The notes under the pieces: model-generated | The model's input: only the letters and a program-made list of their open reading frames with translations | Databases searched by the model: none | What the model was told of the DNA's origin: nothing | From: Octopus vulgaris | Taxonomy: Eukaryota | Assembly (NCBI GenBank): GCA_951406725.2 | Contig: OX597821.1 | Coordinates: forward strand, 8,618,001 to 8,682,000 | DNA: 64,000 bases | Direction of reading: 5' to 3' | Program-made: the position numbers and the translations under genes | Shown here: positions 2,951 through 62,038 of the stretch, one piece after another | How positions within the stretch are numbered: the stretch's first letter is position 1 | Layout: the number at the start of each line of letters is the position of its first letter

Positions 2951-3221
2951 AATGATATCAGTATATATATATATCTAAAATTAATTAAGGATAGAAATTG
3001 ATATTTATCAATTAAAACCAGTGGTCTAGCATATTAAAAAATAATCCGAAGATTAAAATATTTATATATACCAATTAAGAACTGAACACGAAAAGTGGAC
3101 AGTCAACATGCTAGATATAGACGTCAAATCGCCATTCTCCACAAAGATTATGTTCTCAAATCAAACTCAGCACAAAACCAAAGCAATAAACAAGTGAAAA
3201 TATACGAAATAAAATAATTAC

Positions 3222-3284
3222 CCATGTACTGATCAGTTTCGGTTATTATTATCGCAAGGATAACTGTAACATTCATCAGCATGG
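3222..3284 (-). ncRNA. type I hammerhead ribozyme
   Basis: Reverse complement of 3524-3586: ccatg CTGATGA ... GAAAC tgatca GTA catgg. Confidence 0.85.
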
Positions 3285-3523
3285 TCCGTTATGAATGCAA
3301 TTTGCTGGACTAGATGCAAAAACGATACCGGAGTATCGCGTGCATGGAGTTCAACCTATTACATTCGAATGTATCTTTCAAATGCCTTTATTTGGCGCGT
3401 TGAGACCCGAAAAAACCAGCCTGCAGCTAATAATTAGCAGCAGTCGATTTATCGGTTAGAGAACATATTTATTTATATAAAATTAATTAAGGGTAGAAAT
3501 TGATATTTATCAATTAAAACGGA

Positions 3524-3586
3524 CCATGCTGATGAATGTTACAGTTATCCTTGCGATAATAATAACCGAAACTGATCAGTACATGG
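3524..3586 (+). ncRNA. type I hammerhead ribozyme
   Basis: Stem I ccatg/catgg; CTGATGA 3529-3535; stem II gtta..ttatc/gataa..taac (imperfect base); GAAA 3568-3571; palindromic stem III ACTGATCAGT; GUA triplet 3579-3581. Confidence 0.85.
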
Positions 3587-3731
3587 GTAATTATTTTATT
3601 TAGTATATTTTCACTTGTTTATTGTTTTGTGCTGAGTTTGATTTGAGAACATAATCTTTGTGGAGAATGGCGATTTGACGTCTATATCTAGCATGTTGAC
3701 TGTCCACTTTTCCTGTTCAGTCCTTAATTGG

Positions 3732-3763
<32 letters not shown>

Positions 3764-4689: not shown

Positions 4690-5250
<561 letters not shown>

Positions 5251-5262
5251 TATACATTTATA

Positions 5263-5308
<46 letters not shown>

Positions 5309-5406
5309 TAAATTAGAGACAAAACCACTATTATGCAAATCAAACAAAGAAAGACTTAAGCCAATACATAAAATAATTTATATAAATTAAAATTTAACAT
5401 ATGAAT

Positions 5407-5458
5407 AACCACTACGATCGTTTCGTGTCAGCACATCTTAGACATTCTTCAGGTGGTT
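5407..5458 (-). ncRNA. type I hammerhead ribozyme
   Basis: Minus strand: aaccac CTGAAGA a-tgtc-taagatgtgct-gaca-c GAAAC gatc GTA gtggtt; 6-bp stem I; palindromic stem III ACGATCGT; in an insert starting at (TA)n near 5301. Confidence 0.88.
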
Positions 5459-5517
5459 TCAAAACCTTCTTAGCGAGTTTTAATCTATGAATAAAATTTA
5501 GTTCATATTATGTGACC

Positions 5518-5706
5518 GCGTGTGTATTGTTGGCGATTTTCTTTCTCCGTCTTCCCTTCCTTGGACCATTCCTTTCTCTATGTTTCTGACAAAAAGCTCC
5601 GCTCGGAACGTTAAATCCTCCTTCTGTCTTTCTTTTCTAATAACACTATACTCATTCCACGTCCTCACGTTGTTGTGTTTTCTCTTTGTTCATGTTTGGA
5701 TTAACT
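5518..5706 (+). mobile_element. Penelope-like 3' terminus with decayed minimal hammerhead
   Basis: ttt CTGACaa aagc-tcc-gctc GgAAC GTTA aa at ~5583-5616 resembles the 1834/17189 motif with core mutations; ends at (TA)n. Confidence 0.45.
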
Positions 5707-5908
5707 ATATATATATATATATATATATGTATAGAAACGTTAGCACGCCGGGCGAAATGCGTGGCCGTATTTCGTCCGCCGTTACGTTCTGAGTAACGTT
5801 AAACTAATACAGCTGTTTGTCGCCTCCGTCTTTTGTTTTTTTTTATGAATTCTCGCTATATATATATATATATGTATATGTATATATCTATGTGTGTGTG
5901 TGTGTGTT

Positions 5909-18602: not shown

Positions 18603-19050
18603 TGACACATTCTCTTGTGGTAGAGATAATTTTGCATAGAATTTGATATAAGTGCAATTGTCTATGTTGCTCAAATACATGTCACTGGTCCTCTGAGTTA
18701 TTTTTCTTAGAACATTTTTGTTTGAATTATGCAAAGTACCTATAAGTGTGTTCAACACCGTTTTGTATTAGTTGAAATCGTTTGGCTATAACAGATAAAG
18801 TTGAACAATTGTCGTGCTGACGACTATCAAGCCAGAAACACTTGTCCACGTTTGTCGTTTATCTCCAGTCAATAACTCTGACTTTATCTTAATGACATGT
18901 CAGCTTCGCAGAATTCTTGAGGTTTTCTCCCATTCGCATATGGTCATGCTATTTGAAGTTGGTAATTATGACATACTGTTTAGAAACAGAGGAACTGTTA
19001 ATAAATCAAGAATTTATGTTGTAAGGTATTTGATATGCTTGTATTTGTTA

Positions 19051-19281
19051 GGCGACGAGCTGGCAGAAACGTTAGCACGCCGGGTGAAATGCGTAGCCGT
19101 ATTTCGTCTGCCGTTACGTTCTGAGTTCAAATTCCGCCGAGGTCCACTTTGCCTTTCATCCTTTCGGGGTCGAATAAATAAGTACCAGTTGGGCACTGGG
19201 GTCGATATAATCGACTTAATCCGTTTGTCTGTCCTTAGTTGTCCCCTCTGTGTTTATCCCCTTGTGGGTAGTAAAGAAATA
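19051..19281 (+). mobile_element. SINE family B (tRNA-derived, Nin-domain-like), full length with 11-bp TSD
   Basis: A-box-like gagctggcagaaacgttagc; B-box gagttcaaattcc; gcctttcatcctttcggggtcga..taagtacc central domain; tgtatttgtta at 19040-19050 and 19282-19292. Confidence 0.9.
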
Positions 19282-20538
19282 TGTATTTGTTAATGCTGTC
19301 CAAATACAGGCCGCTGAATTTTTTCTCTTGGTTTATTTTTGTTCAAATTATCAACATAAAATTGTAATACCTATTTCTTTATTACCCACAAGGGGCTAAA
19401 ATAAAATTGCAATACCAGCATGATATGATGAGTCATGCTTTTCCAGCACTATCGATGCCGTCACTAAAAAACAAAACCAAAAATTTTTGAAATAGGCTCT
19501 AACAACAAAAATAATAACGGAGTCGTTTGAGTGTGGGAGTTTTGCGCTCTGATTTCCGAATATTTGAACTCTGAGTTCAAATTCCACCTAAGTAAACTTT
19601 GCATATTTCATATCCTTCCATTGTAGTTAAAGGGGCTACAAATAAATTTGTTGGGGTTTTTACTTCTCTCTTTCTCAAAATCAACTACACTATCGTGGAG
19701 GATCAATTGTTATGTTCCTTTTCTCACAGAAGATTCAAGGAGAGTTGAGCATTGTGCCAGCAACCTCTTGACAGAATACAATAATTATTCAAAGGAAACA
19801 GAAGATTGCGTGTGTGGTTGGATATTTTCTACGCACGAAACGGATCTTAAACACACACACACACACACACACGCACACACACACACACGCACACACACAC
19901 ACACACGCATATATACTTGTATATGTTGTATTTGTGTGTGCGTGTGTGTGTGTTAGTCTTTTGGTTGATGTCTGTCAGGGAAGAGTATATAACAGAGAAA
20001 ATTGAAGAAAGTTGGAGGAGGAAAAACATGGGATGAAGTGACAGGGATATGAAAGAAAGAAAGAAAGAAAAAGAAAGAGGGATAGGTGAGTTGATGACTG
20101 GGCTTGTAAAATAATAGAAAAATGAACGCCAATGAATCGCTATATAGAACCGTAATTACATGCGCGCGCACACGCACACACACACGAATTAAGAACTGTA
20201 GTAGTTTGTCGTAATTATAATATTGGTTATGATGTTGTTTGATGGATGGAGTGGTTGTAGTTGAGCTAGTCCTTAAGAAATGGCAGCTAAGACTTTATAT
20301 ATTTATTGTTTAAAATTTTTAATGTACTAACACTTAGATTCTTAAAAATCTCGGAAGATTTAACGTATGCATTTTATTGCAATAGTACTCTGCAAATAGA
20401 CATTATTTTCGTAAATAAGCGGCTGTATCATTTCTGTAATATTATTCTCATCTCCTCAATGTTTCCTAAGTCGTAACTATTGAACGTGAGTCTAAATACG
20501 TAGTTTTCAACATGTGTTGCTCTATATGTAAAGTTTTG

Positions 20539-21424
20539 AAATCTATTCCATCTAAACCAGATTTTTTAATTAATTATTTTTGTAACTAAACAGTTTGAAA
20601 TTTCGAATACTGGTAGAATTTCTCACGTAGAACACGGCTTACTCTGATCATTTTGAACAAAATTTCGTATTTCAGATGTTATTTCGTTTTAAAGTTGTAT
20701 TTGGGTAATTTCAACCAATCAACGACGTGTATTCAGCTATAGAAAGCAAATGCAGTTTGCGATAGTAATCGAAAAGGAACAACTTCCGGGTTATTTCTAC
20801 TAAAGTCACCACTCTGCCCTATTCGTATGGCGAGCGAAGACGATGCCACCTTTATCCTTTCTTCCTTTCTAGTCATCACCGTGCATTCCTTACTCTTTCC
20901 TTCCTTTCTACACTATCAACTAGCAACCTGCGAGCGAACTTGTCACTGCCACTACAATTACCGTATTTTCCGGCGTAGAAGCCGCTATTTGTTTTGTTTT
21001 ACCTTCATGTTTTAATAATGTTAACTTTTATTTAATAAAATTTTGTATTGACGAAATGTGTTTGTTGTTGATTATAGTAAGATAAAATCATGGCAATAAC
21101 AATGCATCTCATAGTTGCAAAATAAGGCATTTTGAAACTACATATACGTCAAAAACAAAAAAGATTAGCCGCGAACTCGTGGTGACATTTAGTTGAGATG
21201 ACCCGGACGTTGTTCTTCTTCGATTACTATCGTAAATACCAGTAGCTTTCTTCAACCGAATACACCTCGTTGATTGGTTTAACATACCCCCAAAAGACTA
21301 CTTTAAAACGAAATAACTTCAAAAATGTTCAGAGTAAACCGTTTTCCACGTGAGAAATTCCACCAGTATTCGAAGTTTCAAACTGTTAAAAAAAAAAAAT
21401 CTGTGATTGAGATGGAATAGATTT
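20539..21424. mobile_element. non-autonomous DNA transposon/foldback element with long TIRs
   Basis: Inverted arms 20539-20812 and 21179-21424 (aaatctattccatct... / ...agatggaatagattt); diverged; non-coding interior. Confidence 0.85.
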
Positions 21425-23397: not shown

Positions 23398-23450
23398 ATT
23401 GAAGTAGAAGAAAGATCGATTTCATTCTTGAGTGTAAGGATAGTAATAGT

Positions 23451-23977
23451 TATTGGAGTATTCATGTTGCGTTAAGAGTGAATATTTCTTTATAAACAAT
23501 GTTCTTTTTTATTATTTCGGGGTGCATAAGCAAAAAGATTTTCTTTTACTCCCACCCGTGATGCTCCAACATAAAGTTTCAAATCTGAATCAGGGTGAGA
23601 CTACCATTACAGATTTAGATTCATTCCTCCTGTATATGTGTATTTTATAAGAGAAAAACACGTAATAATTGAATTAGAAATGAGATGGATTTTTATACAC
23701 GAACATCTGTTTGTTTATTATACGACAATAATAATGAGTTGTATGTGTTATTTTATTTGTCAATACAGTAATGGCAATTATATAATGCAGCTCATTTAAA
23801 TACGTAATTTAGTCACTCTTGAATGTGATGATAGTAATGACAAATTAAGTAATTGAAGTATTCATGTTGCAGTAAGAGTGAATATTTCTTTATAAACAAT
23901 GTTTTTTGTTTTATTTCACGGTGCATAAACAAAAAGATTTGCTTTTAGTCCCACACCTGATGCTTCTACATAAGGTT
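23451..23977. repeat. diverged ~127-bp direct duplication
   Basis: 23451-23578 matches 23851-23977 (ttcatgttgc..taagagtgaatatttctttataaacaatgtt...). Confidence 0.85.
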
Positions 23978-25129: not shown

Positions 25130-25132
<3 letters not shown>

Positions 25133-25410
25133 GTAGTAACAGAAAAGAGGAATTTCGGTTGTCCCCACGTGGTGGATTGTAATGTATATAAGAAAAATAA
25201 AAATGGAAAATACGCACACTTACATGGTTATAGTATAATTTTTAATGTATCGACCGGTTTCGATACCGGTTTCAACAACATGGACCCATTTTCTTCTTAA
25301 GAAAAAATATATTTTCATATAAATTAAACATTGTTTCATGAAACCGGTCGATACATTAAAAATTATACTATAACCATGTAAGTGTGCGTATTTTCCGTTT
25401 TTATTTTTCT

Positions 25411-25416
<6 letters not shown>
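25130..25416. mobile_element. Penelope-like terminus with 77-bp inverted repeat, each arm holding the 3' half of a hammerhead
   Basis: 25185-25261 is the reverse complement of 25340-25416 with 1 mismatch; arms start GAAAC-CG-GTC; flanked by (TA)n. Confidence 0.7.
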
Positions 25417-33217: not shown

Positions 33218-33612
33218 TTTCAAATTTTGTTACAAGGGCAGCAATTTTAGGGAGGGGATGAGTCGATTTCATCGACCCAAGTGTTCAACTGGTACTTATT
33301 TTATTGATCCCGTAAAGATGAAAATCAAAGTCGCACTCGGCGGAATTTGAATTCAGAACGTAGTGATGGGCAAAATACCTATTTCTTTATTACCCACAAG
33401 GGGCTAAACACAGAGGGGACAAACAAGGACAGACATAGGTATTAAGTCGATTACATCGACCCCAGTGCGTAACTGGTACTTAAGTTATCGACCTCGAAAT
33501 GATGAAAGGCAAAGTCGACCTCGGCGGAATTTGAACTCACAATGTAACGCAGACGAAATACCGCTATGCATTTCGCCTGGTGTGCTAACGATTCTTCCAG
33601 CTCGCCGTCTTA
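33218..33612 (-). mobile_element. SINE family B head-to-tail composite (young copy joined to a headless older copy)
   Basis: 33373-33612 is a full B copy; 33218-33378 is a B body without the A-box; junction at ggtatt. Confidence 0.85.
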
Positions 33613-35949: not shown

Positions 35950-36585
35950 CAATGAAGTAGGTAATCCATTACAAATGTTCGAAGTGTTCACGAAGTCGCG
36001 CTAAACAAGTGTTCATGCGGAATTTGAAATTGCGATGAACCCCCTTAAATAGCTCTTCTTTCTCGTTGACTTGTTCACAAGCTTCAACAATTCTTTGCAG
36101 AAGACTTCCTTCGTCCCGAATCATTTCAGAATACACAAGGGTTTTAATGTAGCCCCAGAAGAAAGTTAAATCTGGTGAAAGTGGTGCACAGTCGATCGGC
36201 CCACAACGACCGAGCCAGGTACCATTCAGAAAACCACGAACCTGAAATGCATAATGGGGGCGGATCTCCATCCTGCTGAAACCAAACAAGATTCCCGCTT
36301 CCAAGTGAATGCACGTTAGGCATAATCTTGTTGCCAAGCATCTTGTTGCCAAGCATGTCCAGATACGAATCACCTGTCACAGAGCCCACAAAATAAAATG
36401 GTCCAATTACTTGATTGTGCCAAATCCCACAACATTACCTGGCCTCCGGCTTATTGATTATCGATTTCGATCCAATGAGGATTGGTTTGTGAGTAATATC
36501 GGCAGTTTTGAAAGGAAATAGAAAAAGGGAATGTTAGCAATTTCACATATTGCAGGATGGTGCATGACTTTATGGCCACCCTGTA
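35950..36585 (-). mobile_element. Tc1/mariner superfamily (DD37D/maT- or rosa-like) transposon remnant
   Basis: VWFQQDG.PPH and PLSPDLT-FFWGYIKTLVY motifs; terminus ta-cagggtggccataaagt at 36567-36585. Confidence 0.8.
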
Positions 36586-44332: not shown

Positions 44333-44403
44333 CTACATACATGTGAGCACATGTGTGTGGGTGTGCGCACGCGTGTATATATATATATATATATATATAT
44401 TTG

Positions 44404-44448
<45 letters not shown>

Positions 44449-44451
44449 CTA

Positions 44452-44965
44452 TAAACATAGTAAATAGGGTAATAAAAATAAATTATTATTACCAGTGGTC
44501 TAGCACAAAAGACGAATTAGTCGTTAGACTATATGTTATTCATATATAAATACATTAAAAGGCCTCCAAATAAAGAAGCGAGTGCTAATTACACAAAAAG
44601 GGGATAAATTCATGAAAGGGAATGAAAATCAAAAACGTTTACCAACTCAGCTAATCCTGTACCGCGGTTTCATCTTTTTTTTTTTGCAAATGAATAGAAT
44701 TTATCTGCCAAGGCCAGAATCATCAGCAGGAAGCCTTTGTAATCCGAGATGTACATACCGTTAGAAGCACGTGCAAATCTAACGATCTATATACCCTAAC
44801 TTTTCAGACTAGCGCGCAGACGCAAATCATACCCGGCGACAGAGAGGATGCCGGTAAAAATTTATCGAGCAATATTTAAACATAGTAAATAGGGTAATAA
44901 AAATAAATTATTAATACCAGTGTGTGTATCTAGCACTCGCTTCTTTATTTGGAAGCCTTTTAATG

Positions 44966-44976
<11 letters not shown>
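44452..44976 (-). mobile_element. Non-coding Penelope/retrozyme-like insert: 425-bp monomer, partial second monomer, inverted arm
   Basis: Direct repeat 44452-44497 = 44877-44922 (offset 425); inverted repeat 44542-44595 vs 44923-44976; HHR at 44655-44731; (TA)n flanks. Confidence 0.8.
44655..44731 (-). ncRNA. type I hammerhead ribozyme
   Basis: Minus strand: tcctg CTGATGA ttctg...agat GAAAC cgcg GTA cagga; stem I tcctg/cagga; palindromic stem III ACCGCGGT; stem II long and imperfect. Confidence 0.82.
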
Positions 44977-45044
<68 letters not shown>

Positions 45045-45733: not shown

Positions 45734-45906
45734 TGTTGTATATGCATAAACAAATGCGAATGTCTGGAATCTCGCCTTGCAACCACATAACTCTGTGTTC
45801 AGTCCCAAGTGTCTTCTCCTATAACTCCGGACGGACCAATGCCTCTTGAATGAATTTCGTAGATGAAAAATATGTGGCTACCCATCGTATACGTATGTGC
45901 ATATAT

Positions 45907-46089
45907 GGCGGTATTTCGTCTGTCGTTACGTTCTGAGTTCAAATTCCGCCGAGGTCGACTTTGCCTCTCATCCTCTCGGGGTCGATAATTAAAGTACCAG
46001 TTCCGCACTGGGTCGATGTAATCGGCTTAAACCCTTTGCCTGTCCTTGTTTGTCCCCTCTACGTTTAGCTTCTTGTGGGTAGTAAAGAA

Positions 46090-46126: not shown

Positions 46127-46353
46127 AAAAGTTTGAGTTATATTTTGTCCTTTAATTTGAAGGACTCCAAAATGCGATTTCTAATATAGATTCTTCATAT
46201 TCTGCTGGTAGCTTACTGGCGTAAGTTTGCAAATATGCAAATAATACTAGAATATGGTGTGTTACGTGAATTTATGGAAAGGTATCCCACAAAACTCAAC
46301 AAATTTGTTAAAAATGGAGAAGAGATGTTAAAATTTAAGAGAATCTTAATTCA

Positions 46354-46470
46354 TGCATACGATCATTTCAAACAGCGTTATTAAAACATGCAAATTCATG
46401 GTTGAATAGAAATAATTATATTAGTTTGATTAAATTAAATTAATTATATATCACTGTTCTCCTCAGTGCA
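46354..46470 (-). ncRNA. type I hammerhead ribozyme with very long stem II region (left arm of inverted repeat)
   Basis: Minus strand: tgca CTGAGGA gaacagtg...cgctgttt GAAAT gatc GTA tgca. Confidence 0.75.
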
Positions 46471-46613
46471 AGAAGTATAAACAAAAAGTTATTATAGAAG
46501 ACATGATAAATGAAATGGCAGAGAATGATTTTGGATATTCATATTTATCCTTATGAGAAATACGAGCATCATAAAAAAGAATCAGAGTCCAGCTAGGTAT
46601 AAACTACAACTGT

Positions 46614-46730
46614 TGCGCTGAGGAGAACAGTGATATATAATGAATTTAATTTAATCAAATTGATTTAATTATTTCTATTCAACCATGAATTTGCATGTTT
46701 TAATATCGCTGTGTGAAACGATCGCATGCA
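46614..46730 (+). ncRNA. type I hammerhead ribozyme with mutated cleavage triplet (right arm)
   Basis: tgcg CTGAGGA gaacagtgatat...atatcgctgtgt GAAAC gatc GCA tgca; inverted arms ~46283-46472 and ~46612-46806. Confidence 0.7.
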
Positions 46731-46810
46731 TCAACTAAAATTCTCTTAAATTTTAATATCTTCTCTTCTCCACACTTAACAAATTTGTTGAGTTTTATGG
46801 GATACGTTTC

Positions 46811-58897: not shown

Positions 58898-60365
58898 TAA
58901 GAGATAAAATGTAAAAGATAAATGATACTATTGATCTCTGGTCAAACAATTCCCTCCCTCACAAATGAATAGCCAGTGAAGGATATGACAAGAGATAAAT
59001 TAAAAACCACGAACGAATTATAATTATGATTCTAGGGACCAAATCAAACAGGGACGAAAACATGTTAATAAGCATTTATAAGCATTCGCTACCGCACTCT
59101 TAACTATAAATGGTTTCAGGGATTTGTAGTTAAGATTTTTATTACAAATAAGTTTCTTAATTACTCTTTTTTAATATATTTAACATATTTATTTAAATAT
59201 TTTTGAGTCTTGGAGAGTTGCATCTTTGCACACGAAATGATTCCAGATAATTGGTCCACGACATATTGTAGGCAACATAAAATTGTACTGCAATGTATAT
59301 ATTGTGTGTAGGGGAGTGTAATAATTCCCGATACCCGAAAGGTTTTCATCTTCTGTTATGTATTGTTATAACAGTTCACCTACAAAGTAAACACAGTATT
59401 TATGACTGGCCTGTCCGCGTGAGTCATTTCAATCACTCACTGGCCATTCATATCACTGTTCATTATTGATTCTTCCCCACTGCGCGATATGTTTGTTTTC
59501 AGGGCAGGTATACTCCCCATTAAAGTTTCTCATCATTCTTGTTATATCGCACGTTCGGATAACCTCTACTCAACTCTGACGTCCAGAATTCTCCCTCTAT
59601 ATCTACGTATTGGGCTAGCCCACTTCATCATCTGGGGGCGTAAACACAACAATTCTGTACCGACTGTACTGACTTATAAACTGACTTATAAACCAATGTG
59701 ATTTTAGTAAACAAGGGTTTGCTTTCTGTTGGCATCAGATAGCCATCACTCATATTCAAGTCCTTTTCTAAAGATAAGGACTTGAATATGGTTCCTTGTA
59801 TCTGCATGGAACCTATTGTTTGCCTACAATAAGGATGAAGAAGAAAACTTATTAAATGTGGAATTTTAAAGGCCTGTGTCTGCTAAAAAGTAAATGTATG
59901 CTCTCTTTTGCATTATTTCCGATAGAAACTTCGTTGATGAAAGATAATATAATGATGAAAATTGAATATAGTCGAGTATATACATACATACATACATACA
60001 TACATACATACATACATACATACATACATACATACATACATACATACATACATACATACATACATACGTATATACATACATACTTACATACATACAATAA
60101 GATATAACGATAAATTAATATATGATATATTTAATACGTTATAATATAGGTGGCTAAAGCAATTAAAATTAAATTAGAATACATAGTTAAAGGTACAAAA
60201 TAGTACCTACAATTGCTAGAAATAAGAGCTAAAAATATAACTAGAATAGTCACACAAATATCACGAGACTCATGATATGTTCAAAGGGACTGCGAGCGGC
60301 AAGCCACAACATCCTCCTCATATATATATATACTTTATTTAAAGCAGCAGAAAATTCAACAAAAT

Positions 60366-60403
60366 CTGTTACTCTGAGTTTCTTGTTGCCGTTCATCAGA
60401 CAG
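60366..60403 (-). ncRNA. type I hammerhead ribozyme (minimal, stem II decayed)
   Basis: Minus strand: ctgt CTGATGA acg-gcaa-caa GAAAC tcaga GTA acag; stem I ctgt/acag, extendable by aaaa/tttt; in a ~90-bp insert between TA runs. Confidence 0.8.
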
Positions 60404-60417
60404 TTTTTGCTAGAATG

Positions 60418-60462
<45 letters not shown>

Positions 60463-60659: not shown

Positions 60660-61559
60660 GGGGCCACGGCTTCACCTCTCTGTCACGCCTCTCTGCTTTG
60701 ATGGTGTTCTGCAATTTCTGTAGCTGAGTAGCATAATACGCTGCGTTAATTGTGGTGCCCTTTGCCAGAAAATTTATCATCACTACCTCACGCTAGTCCG
60801 AAAAGACAGTGAGCCTCACTTTGCTCGCTAGGGGTTGGACACGATCCTGCTTTGTAGGTGGTGATTTATCATGCTTCCATTGCTTTGACGGTACTTTAGT
60901 CTCAGGATCATAGCGATGGACTCCTGTTTCATCCGGTGTGATAAGTCTGTTGAAAGAGTCCGCGTTTTCTTCGCATATTGCCAAAAGAACCTAGGAGCAA
61001 ATGACTGAACATCCGGGGAGTCCATCGTGCAGACAACTTCTGTATGTGCAAATGGTCGTGAATAATTTTTTTTTTGTTTTTTGCACGGAACCTACACTTA
61101 TCTTCAGTTCTTGGGCTAGTTGATAAATAGTTATACGGTGATCCTCCAAAATGGCAACTTCCACTTTATACATGTTATCGTCATCAATGGCTGAATGTAG
61201 TCGTCCAGGAATAGGAGCTGTTTCCACCGCTGTCCAACCACATTTGAACTAGGGGTGCCAGTGCTTGACTACATTGTATGATGGTGCATCGTCACCATAA
61301 ACTTCTTTTATCTCATCGAAAGTCTCTTTTGGTGTACGACCTTTCAAGTATAAGAACCTGATCACTGACAGGCATTCAACTACCTCCATTATCACACCTG
61401 AAGCCACTTCAGCAGCCGTAGAAGACAAACGAATACTAGTGGAAAGCTGTAATTCACAATGTGACATATACACACATGTATAATTATACCTGTACAAGTT
61501 ATATTTCCTGCAACAACCAGAAGTGGGCCAGGAGAAATCTTTAATGAACACCCCTCTTA
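60660..61559 (-). mobile_element. mariner (irritans/Hsmar2-like) transposase pseudogene, 3'-truncated
   Basis: TIR-like gaggggtgttcattaa at 61541-61556; [77 protein letters not shown]. Confidence 0.92.
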
Positions 61560-61608
61560 TGTATATATATGTGTATGTATATATATATATGCATATATAT
61601 GTGAGTGT

Positions 61609-61701
<93 letters not shown>

Positions 61702-62038
61702 ACACGTATAGGCATAATACATTCATATCATATACTTACAAGCATACATACATGCACATATACACAAATAGGTACGTTTATACATAAAATAAGTTGTTTT
61801 TGATGGAGTGATATTTACCGGAACATACTGCCGCTTCGTAAATACTCATGAGAATGTCGATGTTTATCGAATAAAAAACAAGTTTACTCTACATTAGTCG
61901 CACATTGAGTACATTATATTCGATAATGGCTATTTTGTTACTACCAGTGGTGACTTTTATCGCTACGTAAGCATACAAGTGTGTGTATATATATATGTAT
62001 ATATGTATATATGTATATATATATATATATACAAACAT

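Follow-up and report, generated by a model that had tools for sequence, protein, structure and literature searches.

PLE insertions follow a recognizable layout, in which a partial tandem adjoins an inverted, 5'-truncated copy, a tail of 30–40 bp extends one end and (TA)n serves as the target; the accessible text of PMC8557442 describes this layout together with non-autonomous derivatives, and treats the origin of the combined tandem and inverted structures as an open question. The same layout is shown in PMC3846280, in which self-priming was proposed, and is applied as a curation rule in PMC8969392. For the sole active PLE studied in vitro (PAc, a Poseidon element of Anolis), the tail was mapped to two internal RT starts, both target strands are cut and a dimer is predicted (PMC11167929). 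Animal retrozymes have been defined and linked to PLEs (PMC7229834 and bioRxiv 10.64898/2026.07.22.740005), and metazoan type I hammerheads with a palindromic helix III are thought to act as dimers (PMC4209133). Twin and dual priming, finally, were defined for L1 (PMC2837659).

The insert described here lies in a 64-kb window (that is, the whole stretch of DNA that was analysed) that is AT-rich, dense in microsatellites and animal-like in appearance. Read on the minus, hammerhead-sense strand, the insert begins and ends with (TA)n, between which lie, in this order, the inverted arm (54 nt), the stub (46 nt) and one monomer (425 nt) (Table 1), with 44447–44451 being neither monomer sequence nor pure TA. 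The direct repeat that an earlier note had placed at 44452–44497 does recur at +425 (44877–44922; 45 of 46 positions identical), and the inverted copy of 44542–44595 that it had seen ending at the internal ATATATA and merging with (TA)n is likewise borne out, the arm matching the reverse complement at 51 of 54 positions. On the minus strand, there are two 3' ends (44452 and 44542), each abutting (TA)n, and two 5'-truncated ends that meet at 44922/44923. The segment absent between stub and inverted arm contains a helix strand, a U-rich linker and a hairpin (hairpin A, 44518–44531). The whole locus amounts to 1.1 units with one hammerhead.

Table 1. Coordinates of the features of the insert and of the comparison element in the window.
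Feature	Position	Strand	Remarks
Left (TA)n target repeat	44376..44446		
Full 425-nt non-coding monomer	44452..44876	-	GC 36%
First (outer) 3' end	~44452	-	putative RT start 1
90-nt tail separating the two 3' ends	44452..44541	-	
Predicted hairpin B	44468..44493	-	3' of the 15-nt motif
15-nt motif	44491..44505	-	common to the 2976 element
44-nt segment absent between stub and inverted arm	44498..44541	-	
Predicted closing helix, 3' strand	44499..44506	-	
Internal ATATATA; second 3' end	44542..44549	-	putative RT start 2
Predicted closing helix, 5' strand	44582..44589	-	
Type I hammerhead motif	44655..44731	-	palindromic helix III
46-nt stub	44877..44922	-	3' end of second, upstream unit; ends at motif base 7
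54-nt inverted, 5'-truncated arm	44923..44976	+	copy of 44542–44595
Right (TA)n target repeat	44977..45036		
Comparison element, another family	2976..3738	-	502-nt monomer, 43-nt stub (3478–3520)

The monomer has no ORF (the longest stop-free stretch is 78 codons) and hence lacks the combination of RT and GIY-YIG that marks an autonomous PLE; inspection by eye of the 58 ORFs of at least 120 aa in the window revealed no RT-like frame that could represent an autonomous partner. The window also holds short open frames at 35969–36376 and 61249–61722 (both on the minus strand), which look like possible transposase remnants. The hammerhead core on the minus strand comprises CUGAUGA (44726–44720), GAAA (44671–44668) and GUA, cleavage being predicted between 44660 and 44659. 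A type I hammerhead with a palindromic helix III is indicated by the core, the helices and the covarying variants together. Among the family variants listed (40 of 136), 12 fall within the hammerhead and none hits the invariant core. Six of these 12 form three pairs that keep or create pairing (44657/44729, 44672/44719 and 44663/44666, the last with the same depth for both members in three runs), one is at the variable N7, three lie in loop II, and those at 44727 and 44731 disrupt helix I if no partner changes occur among the other 96 variants. Rfam gave no match in the window at the gathering score and no hammerhead family at relaxed E-values, and the circular fold of the monomer has a z of −1.6. 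The earlier claim of one hammerhead per monomer stands for the motif itself (44655–44731, minus strand), the ratio being that of a single full monomer. As the direct arm runs across the hammerhead, the template hammerhead would have been uncut (or religated).

In its partial tandem (425 + 46 nt), its adjacent inverted and 5'-truncated 54-nt arm, its 3' extension at one end, its hammerhead and its (TA)n on both sides, the locus agrees with PLE insertions as described in PMC8557442 and PMC3846280, and we hold a PLE-type origin to be highly probable; the element probably works like a non-autonomous PLE. It differs from those insertions in the absence of an ORF, in a unit of only 425 nt and in stub ends that cluster at a shared motif. 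Its tail also exceeds the published 30–40 nt (PMC11167929, PMC8557442, PMC3846280), measuring 90 nt here and 87 nt in a second element of the window. PAc resembles the locus in that two fixed internal RT starts bound the tail, a stem-loop lies at the start, and AT-rich DNA is cut and extended on both strands, as would be the case in the model below. Its start, however, lacks homology to the target and hammerhead cleavage proved unnecessary (PMC11167929), whereas both starts here are TA-like and one junction found in sequencing contigs falls at the hammerhead cut site; the available text of that study gives no account of the inverted junction.

The unit is also close to animal non-LTR retrozymes in being short, non-coding and low in GC, in its type I hammerhead and head-to-tail junction and in the proposed dependence on PLEs. 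At a GC of 0.36 it lies below the 45% that bounds retrozyme units, and its 425 nt slightly exceed the 170–400 nt of PMC7229834 and fall inside the 51–972 nt of bioRxiv 10.64898/2026.07.22.740005. Retrozymes are further marked by tandem arrays with two or more hammerhead-bearing units and by abundant circular RNA. With 1.1 units and one hammerhead the locus is not an 'active' array by the rule of the latter source, and in the accessible text of the former the word 'inverted' does not occur. As in L1 twin or dual priming (PMC2837659), two RTs primed from both target strands could produce an inverted piece together with an internal deletion; for L1, that text gives no fixed position for annealing of the internal primer, and the insertion is bordered by TSDs, whereas here the inner start appears to be fixed and (TA)n makes a TSD unreadable.

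Contigs from 4 of 24 listed public runs were aligned to 44447–44965, and the element is a multi-copy family: 294–552 contigs per run map to it in all four runs, mostly 90–99% alike. Summed contig depth over the 15-nt motif is several- to tens-fold above that over the body; this is not a copy count, yet it suggests that other families share the motif. At 44499, nearly all contig depth has C where the window has T. Loose contig ends show TA joined at the outer 3' end in other copies, and 3 of the 32 listed contig pieces (of 1755; runs X2, X3 and X4) stop exactly at 44542 with 8–9 letters unaligned, which fits a fixed inner 3' end, so that both 3' ends look fixed. Motif scans of viral contigs and of prokaryote genomes returned nothing, and a metagenome scan gave three loci of 47–49% GC, without repeats or likeness to the window and judged to be chance, with a pattern that used the T of the window at 44499, rare in contigs, so that copies may have been missed.

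A second element, at 2976, belongs to another family. Its inverted arm is in a 228-nt register, and it has the same motif and the same predicted 3' fold. As previously noted, the motif is shared between 3017–3031 and 44491–44505, and these are its only two occurrences in the window with up to three mismatches allowed; the bodies are indeed unlike, with no similarity above AT-rich chance, and homology beyond the motif was rejected for four flanking and body segments (z −0.3 to 1.5). The earlier note had also emphasized that about 44 bp are omitted in both. The absence of 44498–44541 from the second copy is confirmed, and the nominal gap is 44 in both elements, but this gap is a derived quantity, namely tail (90) minus stub (46), which reflects a distance of about 90 nt between the two 3' ends (87 nt in the 2976 element). 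Because the gap ends in TA runs and the 2976 junction has 3 nt of microhomology, its true range is 44–51 at the present insert and 44–55 in the 2976 element, and the exact equality is therefore uncertain by about 7–11 nt.

The last 145–150 nt of the sense strand are predicted to fold alike in both elements (z −3.96 and −3.54; 0 of 200 shuffles each); of 120 matched background windows, 4 reach a z of −3.5. In the predicted common 3' fold, a closing helix (44499–44506 with 44582–44589; spacing 75 nt here and 76 nt in the 2976 family) surrounds the inner ATATATA, that is, the second start site, and a hairpin of 5 bp, one pair of which is compensatory; on the 3' side of the helix follow the rest of the motif, with weak or no pairing, and then a second hairpin. 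The two stubs stop just outside this predicted helix, 1 nt short of it here and 6–9 nt short in the 2976 element. Ten variants are listed for the domain, of which six keep pairing, three are unpaired and one (44547) breaks a weak pair. The window copy has two private letters at 44588–44589, where the majority letters restore the helix end, including a U-G pair that is workable on the sense strand only. Folding alone does not show that the domain acts as RNA, as both strands fold about equally well (similar z). The closing helix was not recovered in a two-sequence alignment fold, and a covariance model built from both 3' domains returned at E < 1 only both elements and their own partial copies (6 of 19 hits).

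Five joints are listed in the contigs. Two (391 and 424 nt, run X1) are head-to-tail junctions elsewhere in the family, without showing two hammerheads, and three are inversions. At 44659/44918 (run X3; one contig, with ambiguous strand order), the direct arm most simply ends at motif base 3 and the inverted arm exactly at the hammerhead cut, for which the rough chance under a uniform null is 0.014. The joint 44578/44938 is a near-perfect fold-back away from the motif, and 44700/44828 (runs X1 and X2) lies within the body, also away from it. One of the three contig inversion joints therefore stops at the motif, as do three of the five known junctions (motif bases 2–7), the other two lying elsewhere. 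For two of four further ends to fall within 4 nt of the first, the uniform null gives a rough chance of 0.003, an optimistic figure in that the site was picked post hoc and the 4-nt window compares with an observed spread of 5 nt in motif coordinates. The stub end is thus best read as a preferred stop and not as a fixed rule.

Further hammerhead-type elements are found in the window, at least four of them with an intact core besides the insert at 44452. Two are inverted and have no stub. The first (25130–25416) is a head-to-head inverted insert between TA runs, with arms at 25185–25261 and 25340–25416 (76 of 77 positions identical), each carrying the 3' half of a hammerhead, and a tail of about 55 nt. 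The second (46134–46810) is older, with a decayed hammerhead per arm (about 88% alike) and an undefined left end; its part 46134–46283 folds at z −3.2 around a similar UCUAG helix. Another family is represented at 4796–5250 by an element whose hammerhead lies on the minus strand and has its cut near 5004; a sequence resembling the motif, ACCTGGGTAGCA, stands 48 nt away from the flanking TA, a hairpin follows on the 3' side of this sequence, and neither a stub nor an inverted arm was found for the element. Minus-strand hammerhead motifs with a shorter loop II stand beside (TA)n at 5304–5710 and 60333–60420. Strong folding is also seen in the background windows 25191–25410, 14282, 9697 and 59749 (z −3.9 to −7.2), the last of which overlaps a 40-nt palindrome at 59751–59790. 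Other repeats include an old long inverted repeat (20539–20812 and 21179–21424; 74% over 278 nt) that may once have been a DNA transposon, a direct repeat (23422–23578 and 23813–23977; 82% alike, spacing 391) in which no hammerhead core was found, and a dispersed repeat of 200–250 nt (19050–19288, 33373–33610 and 45905–46089; about 87% alike) that is SINE-like in appearance.

With moderate confidence, we favour the interpretation that a 425-nt non-coding hammerhead repeat was inserted into (TA)n by a PLE protein acting in trans, which would have copied it from two fixed starts about 90 nt apart, the stub marking a stall. A tandem donor may have yielded a more-than-unit RNA with two 3' domains, and a PLE endonuclease may have nicked (TA)n on both strands. 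One RT would then have begun in the downstream unit, at its outer site, and another in the upstream unit, at its inner ATATATA, each start possibly aided by TA pairing. The first would have copied the whole monomer and then tended to halt where it met the base of the upstream domain, itself folded or bound by protein, so that a stub of 43–46 nt remained; the two cDNA ends would have been joined with little or no microhomology. The gap of about 44 nt, as tail minus stub, would then be a favoured and not an invariant outcome. Priming on one RNA and on two RNAs both fit the geometry, and a two-unit RNA suits the layout; the two were not told apart for L1 either, in the text available of PMC2837659. 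More tentatively, and with rather less than even expectation, we suggest twin priming on one more-than-unit RNA, in which a conserved 3' domain would set the starts 90 nt apart, the protein-bound domain would block the first RT, the gap would be the footprint of the bound protein and some templates would be cut by the hammerhead.

The alternative that survives best, which we nonetheless consider unlikely, retains the same PLE-type element and its two starts and takes the stub ends as random 5' truncations, with the match between the two elements being coincidental. Such truncation is routine in PLE copies (PMC8557442 and PMC8969392, in the parts available), two of the three contig joints fall elsewhere and the pair of elements was singled out for looking alike; however, three of five known junctions end in motif bases 2–7, and even one such match has a chance of about 2% under the uniform null.

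A more doubtful proposal, to which we attach a small probability, is that the stub end is the 5' end of an RNA whose transcription starts in the upstream motif, the inverted arm being derived from a second RNA. Start sites and TATA- or initiator-like motifs are indeed held by PLE pseudo-LTRs, according to the accessible text of PMC8557442 and PMC3846280. A constant stub would moreover be explained without a roadblock. Against this, some 45 nt separate the stub end from the internal TATA-like run, more than the usual TATA-to-start distance of 25–30 nt, and the helix flanking the motif needs an upstream strand that would be missing from such an RNA.

Three further accounts appear very improbable. 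The earlier note took the shared geometry to argue for a defined mechanism of integration and against chance rearrangement, a suggestion that is supported, although the mechanism is largely the known one of PLEs; the strong form of the suggestion, a dedicated process that invariably omits 44 bp, can point to the nominal gap of 44 in both elements but fails as a fixed rule given the 7–11-nt uncertainty, the two of three other inversion joints that miss the motif and the stubless inverted inserts elsewhere in the window. For the Penelope elements of rotifers, palindromes seen where inverted copies meet led to the proposal that inversion comes about by self-priming, the template being antisense (PMC3846280). 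Such self-priming would suit the fold-back at 44578/44938 and is scarcely to be expected here, as neither window junction is a palindromic centre and both link a stub to a distant position. An assembly artefact, or a later DNA-level rearrangement beside (TA)n, seems equally remote: none of the 32 listed contig pieces (of 1755) bridges 44922/44923, the best run contains only 0.33 of the sampled words and PLE-type inserts are hard on assemblers (PMC8557442, in part), but the two arms differ at 4 of 100 positions, with the inverted arm carrying the letter of most contig depth at three of the four, the layout recurs in a second family and like joints occur in other samples. A mosaic junction, composed partly of motif and partly of arm, was considered and discarded, since the letters of the arm are those of the family majority.

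What is known in this locus is the layout, that is, the published PLE pattern, and what it adds to that pattern is the long tail, the shared predicted fold and a putative preferred stop. In the literature searched, which included few subscription papers, we found no report of a 90-nt structured PLE tail or of stub ends clustering at one, nor, among the Penelope papers listed, the term 'twin priming'. Should the clustering of stub ends fail, only its long tail would set this family apart from ordinary non-autonomous PLEs. A cis domain of 145 nt that contains two starts and a preferred stop would serve as a compact template amenable to mutation and would leave a signature that can be counted in genomes, and retrozyme-like repeats would be tied to the PLE machinery by insertion anatomy, beyond phylogeny alone. 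If twin priming on a more-than-unit RNA, our more tentative reading, is true, such mini-elements would record how PLEs build their tandem-plus-inverted inserts.
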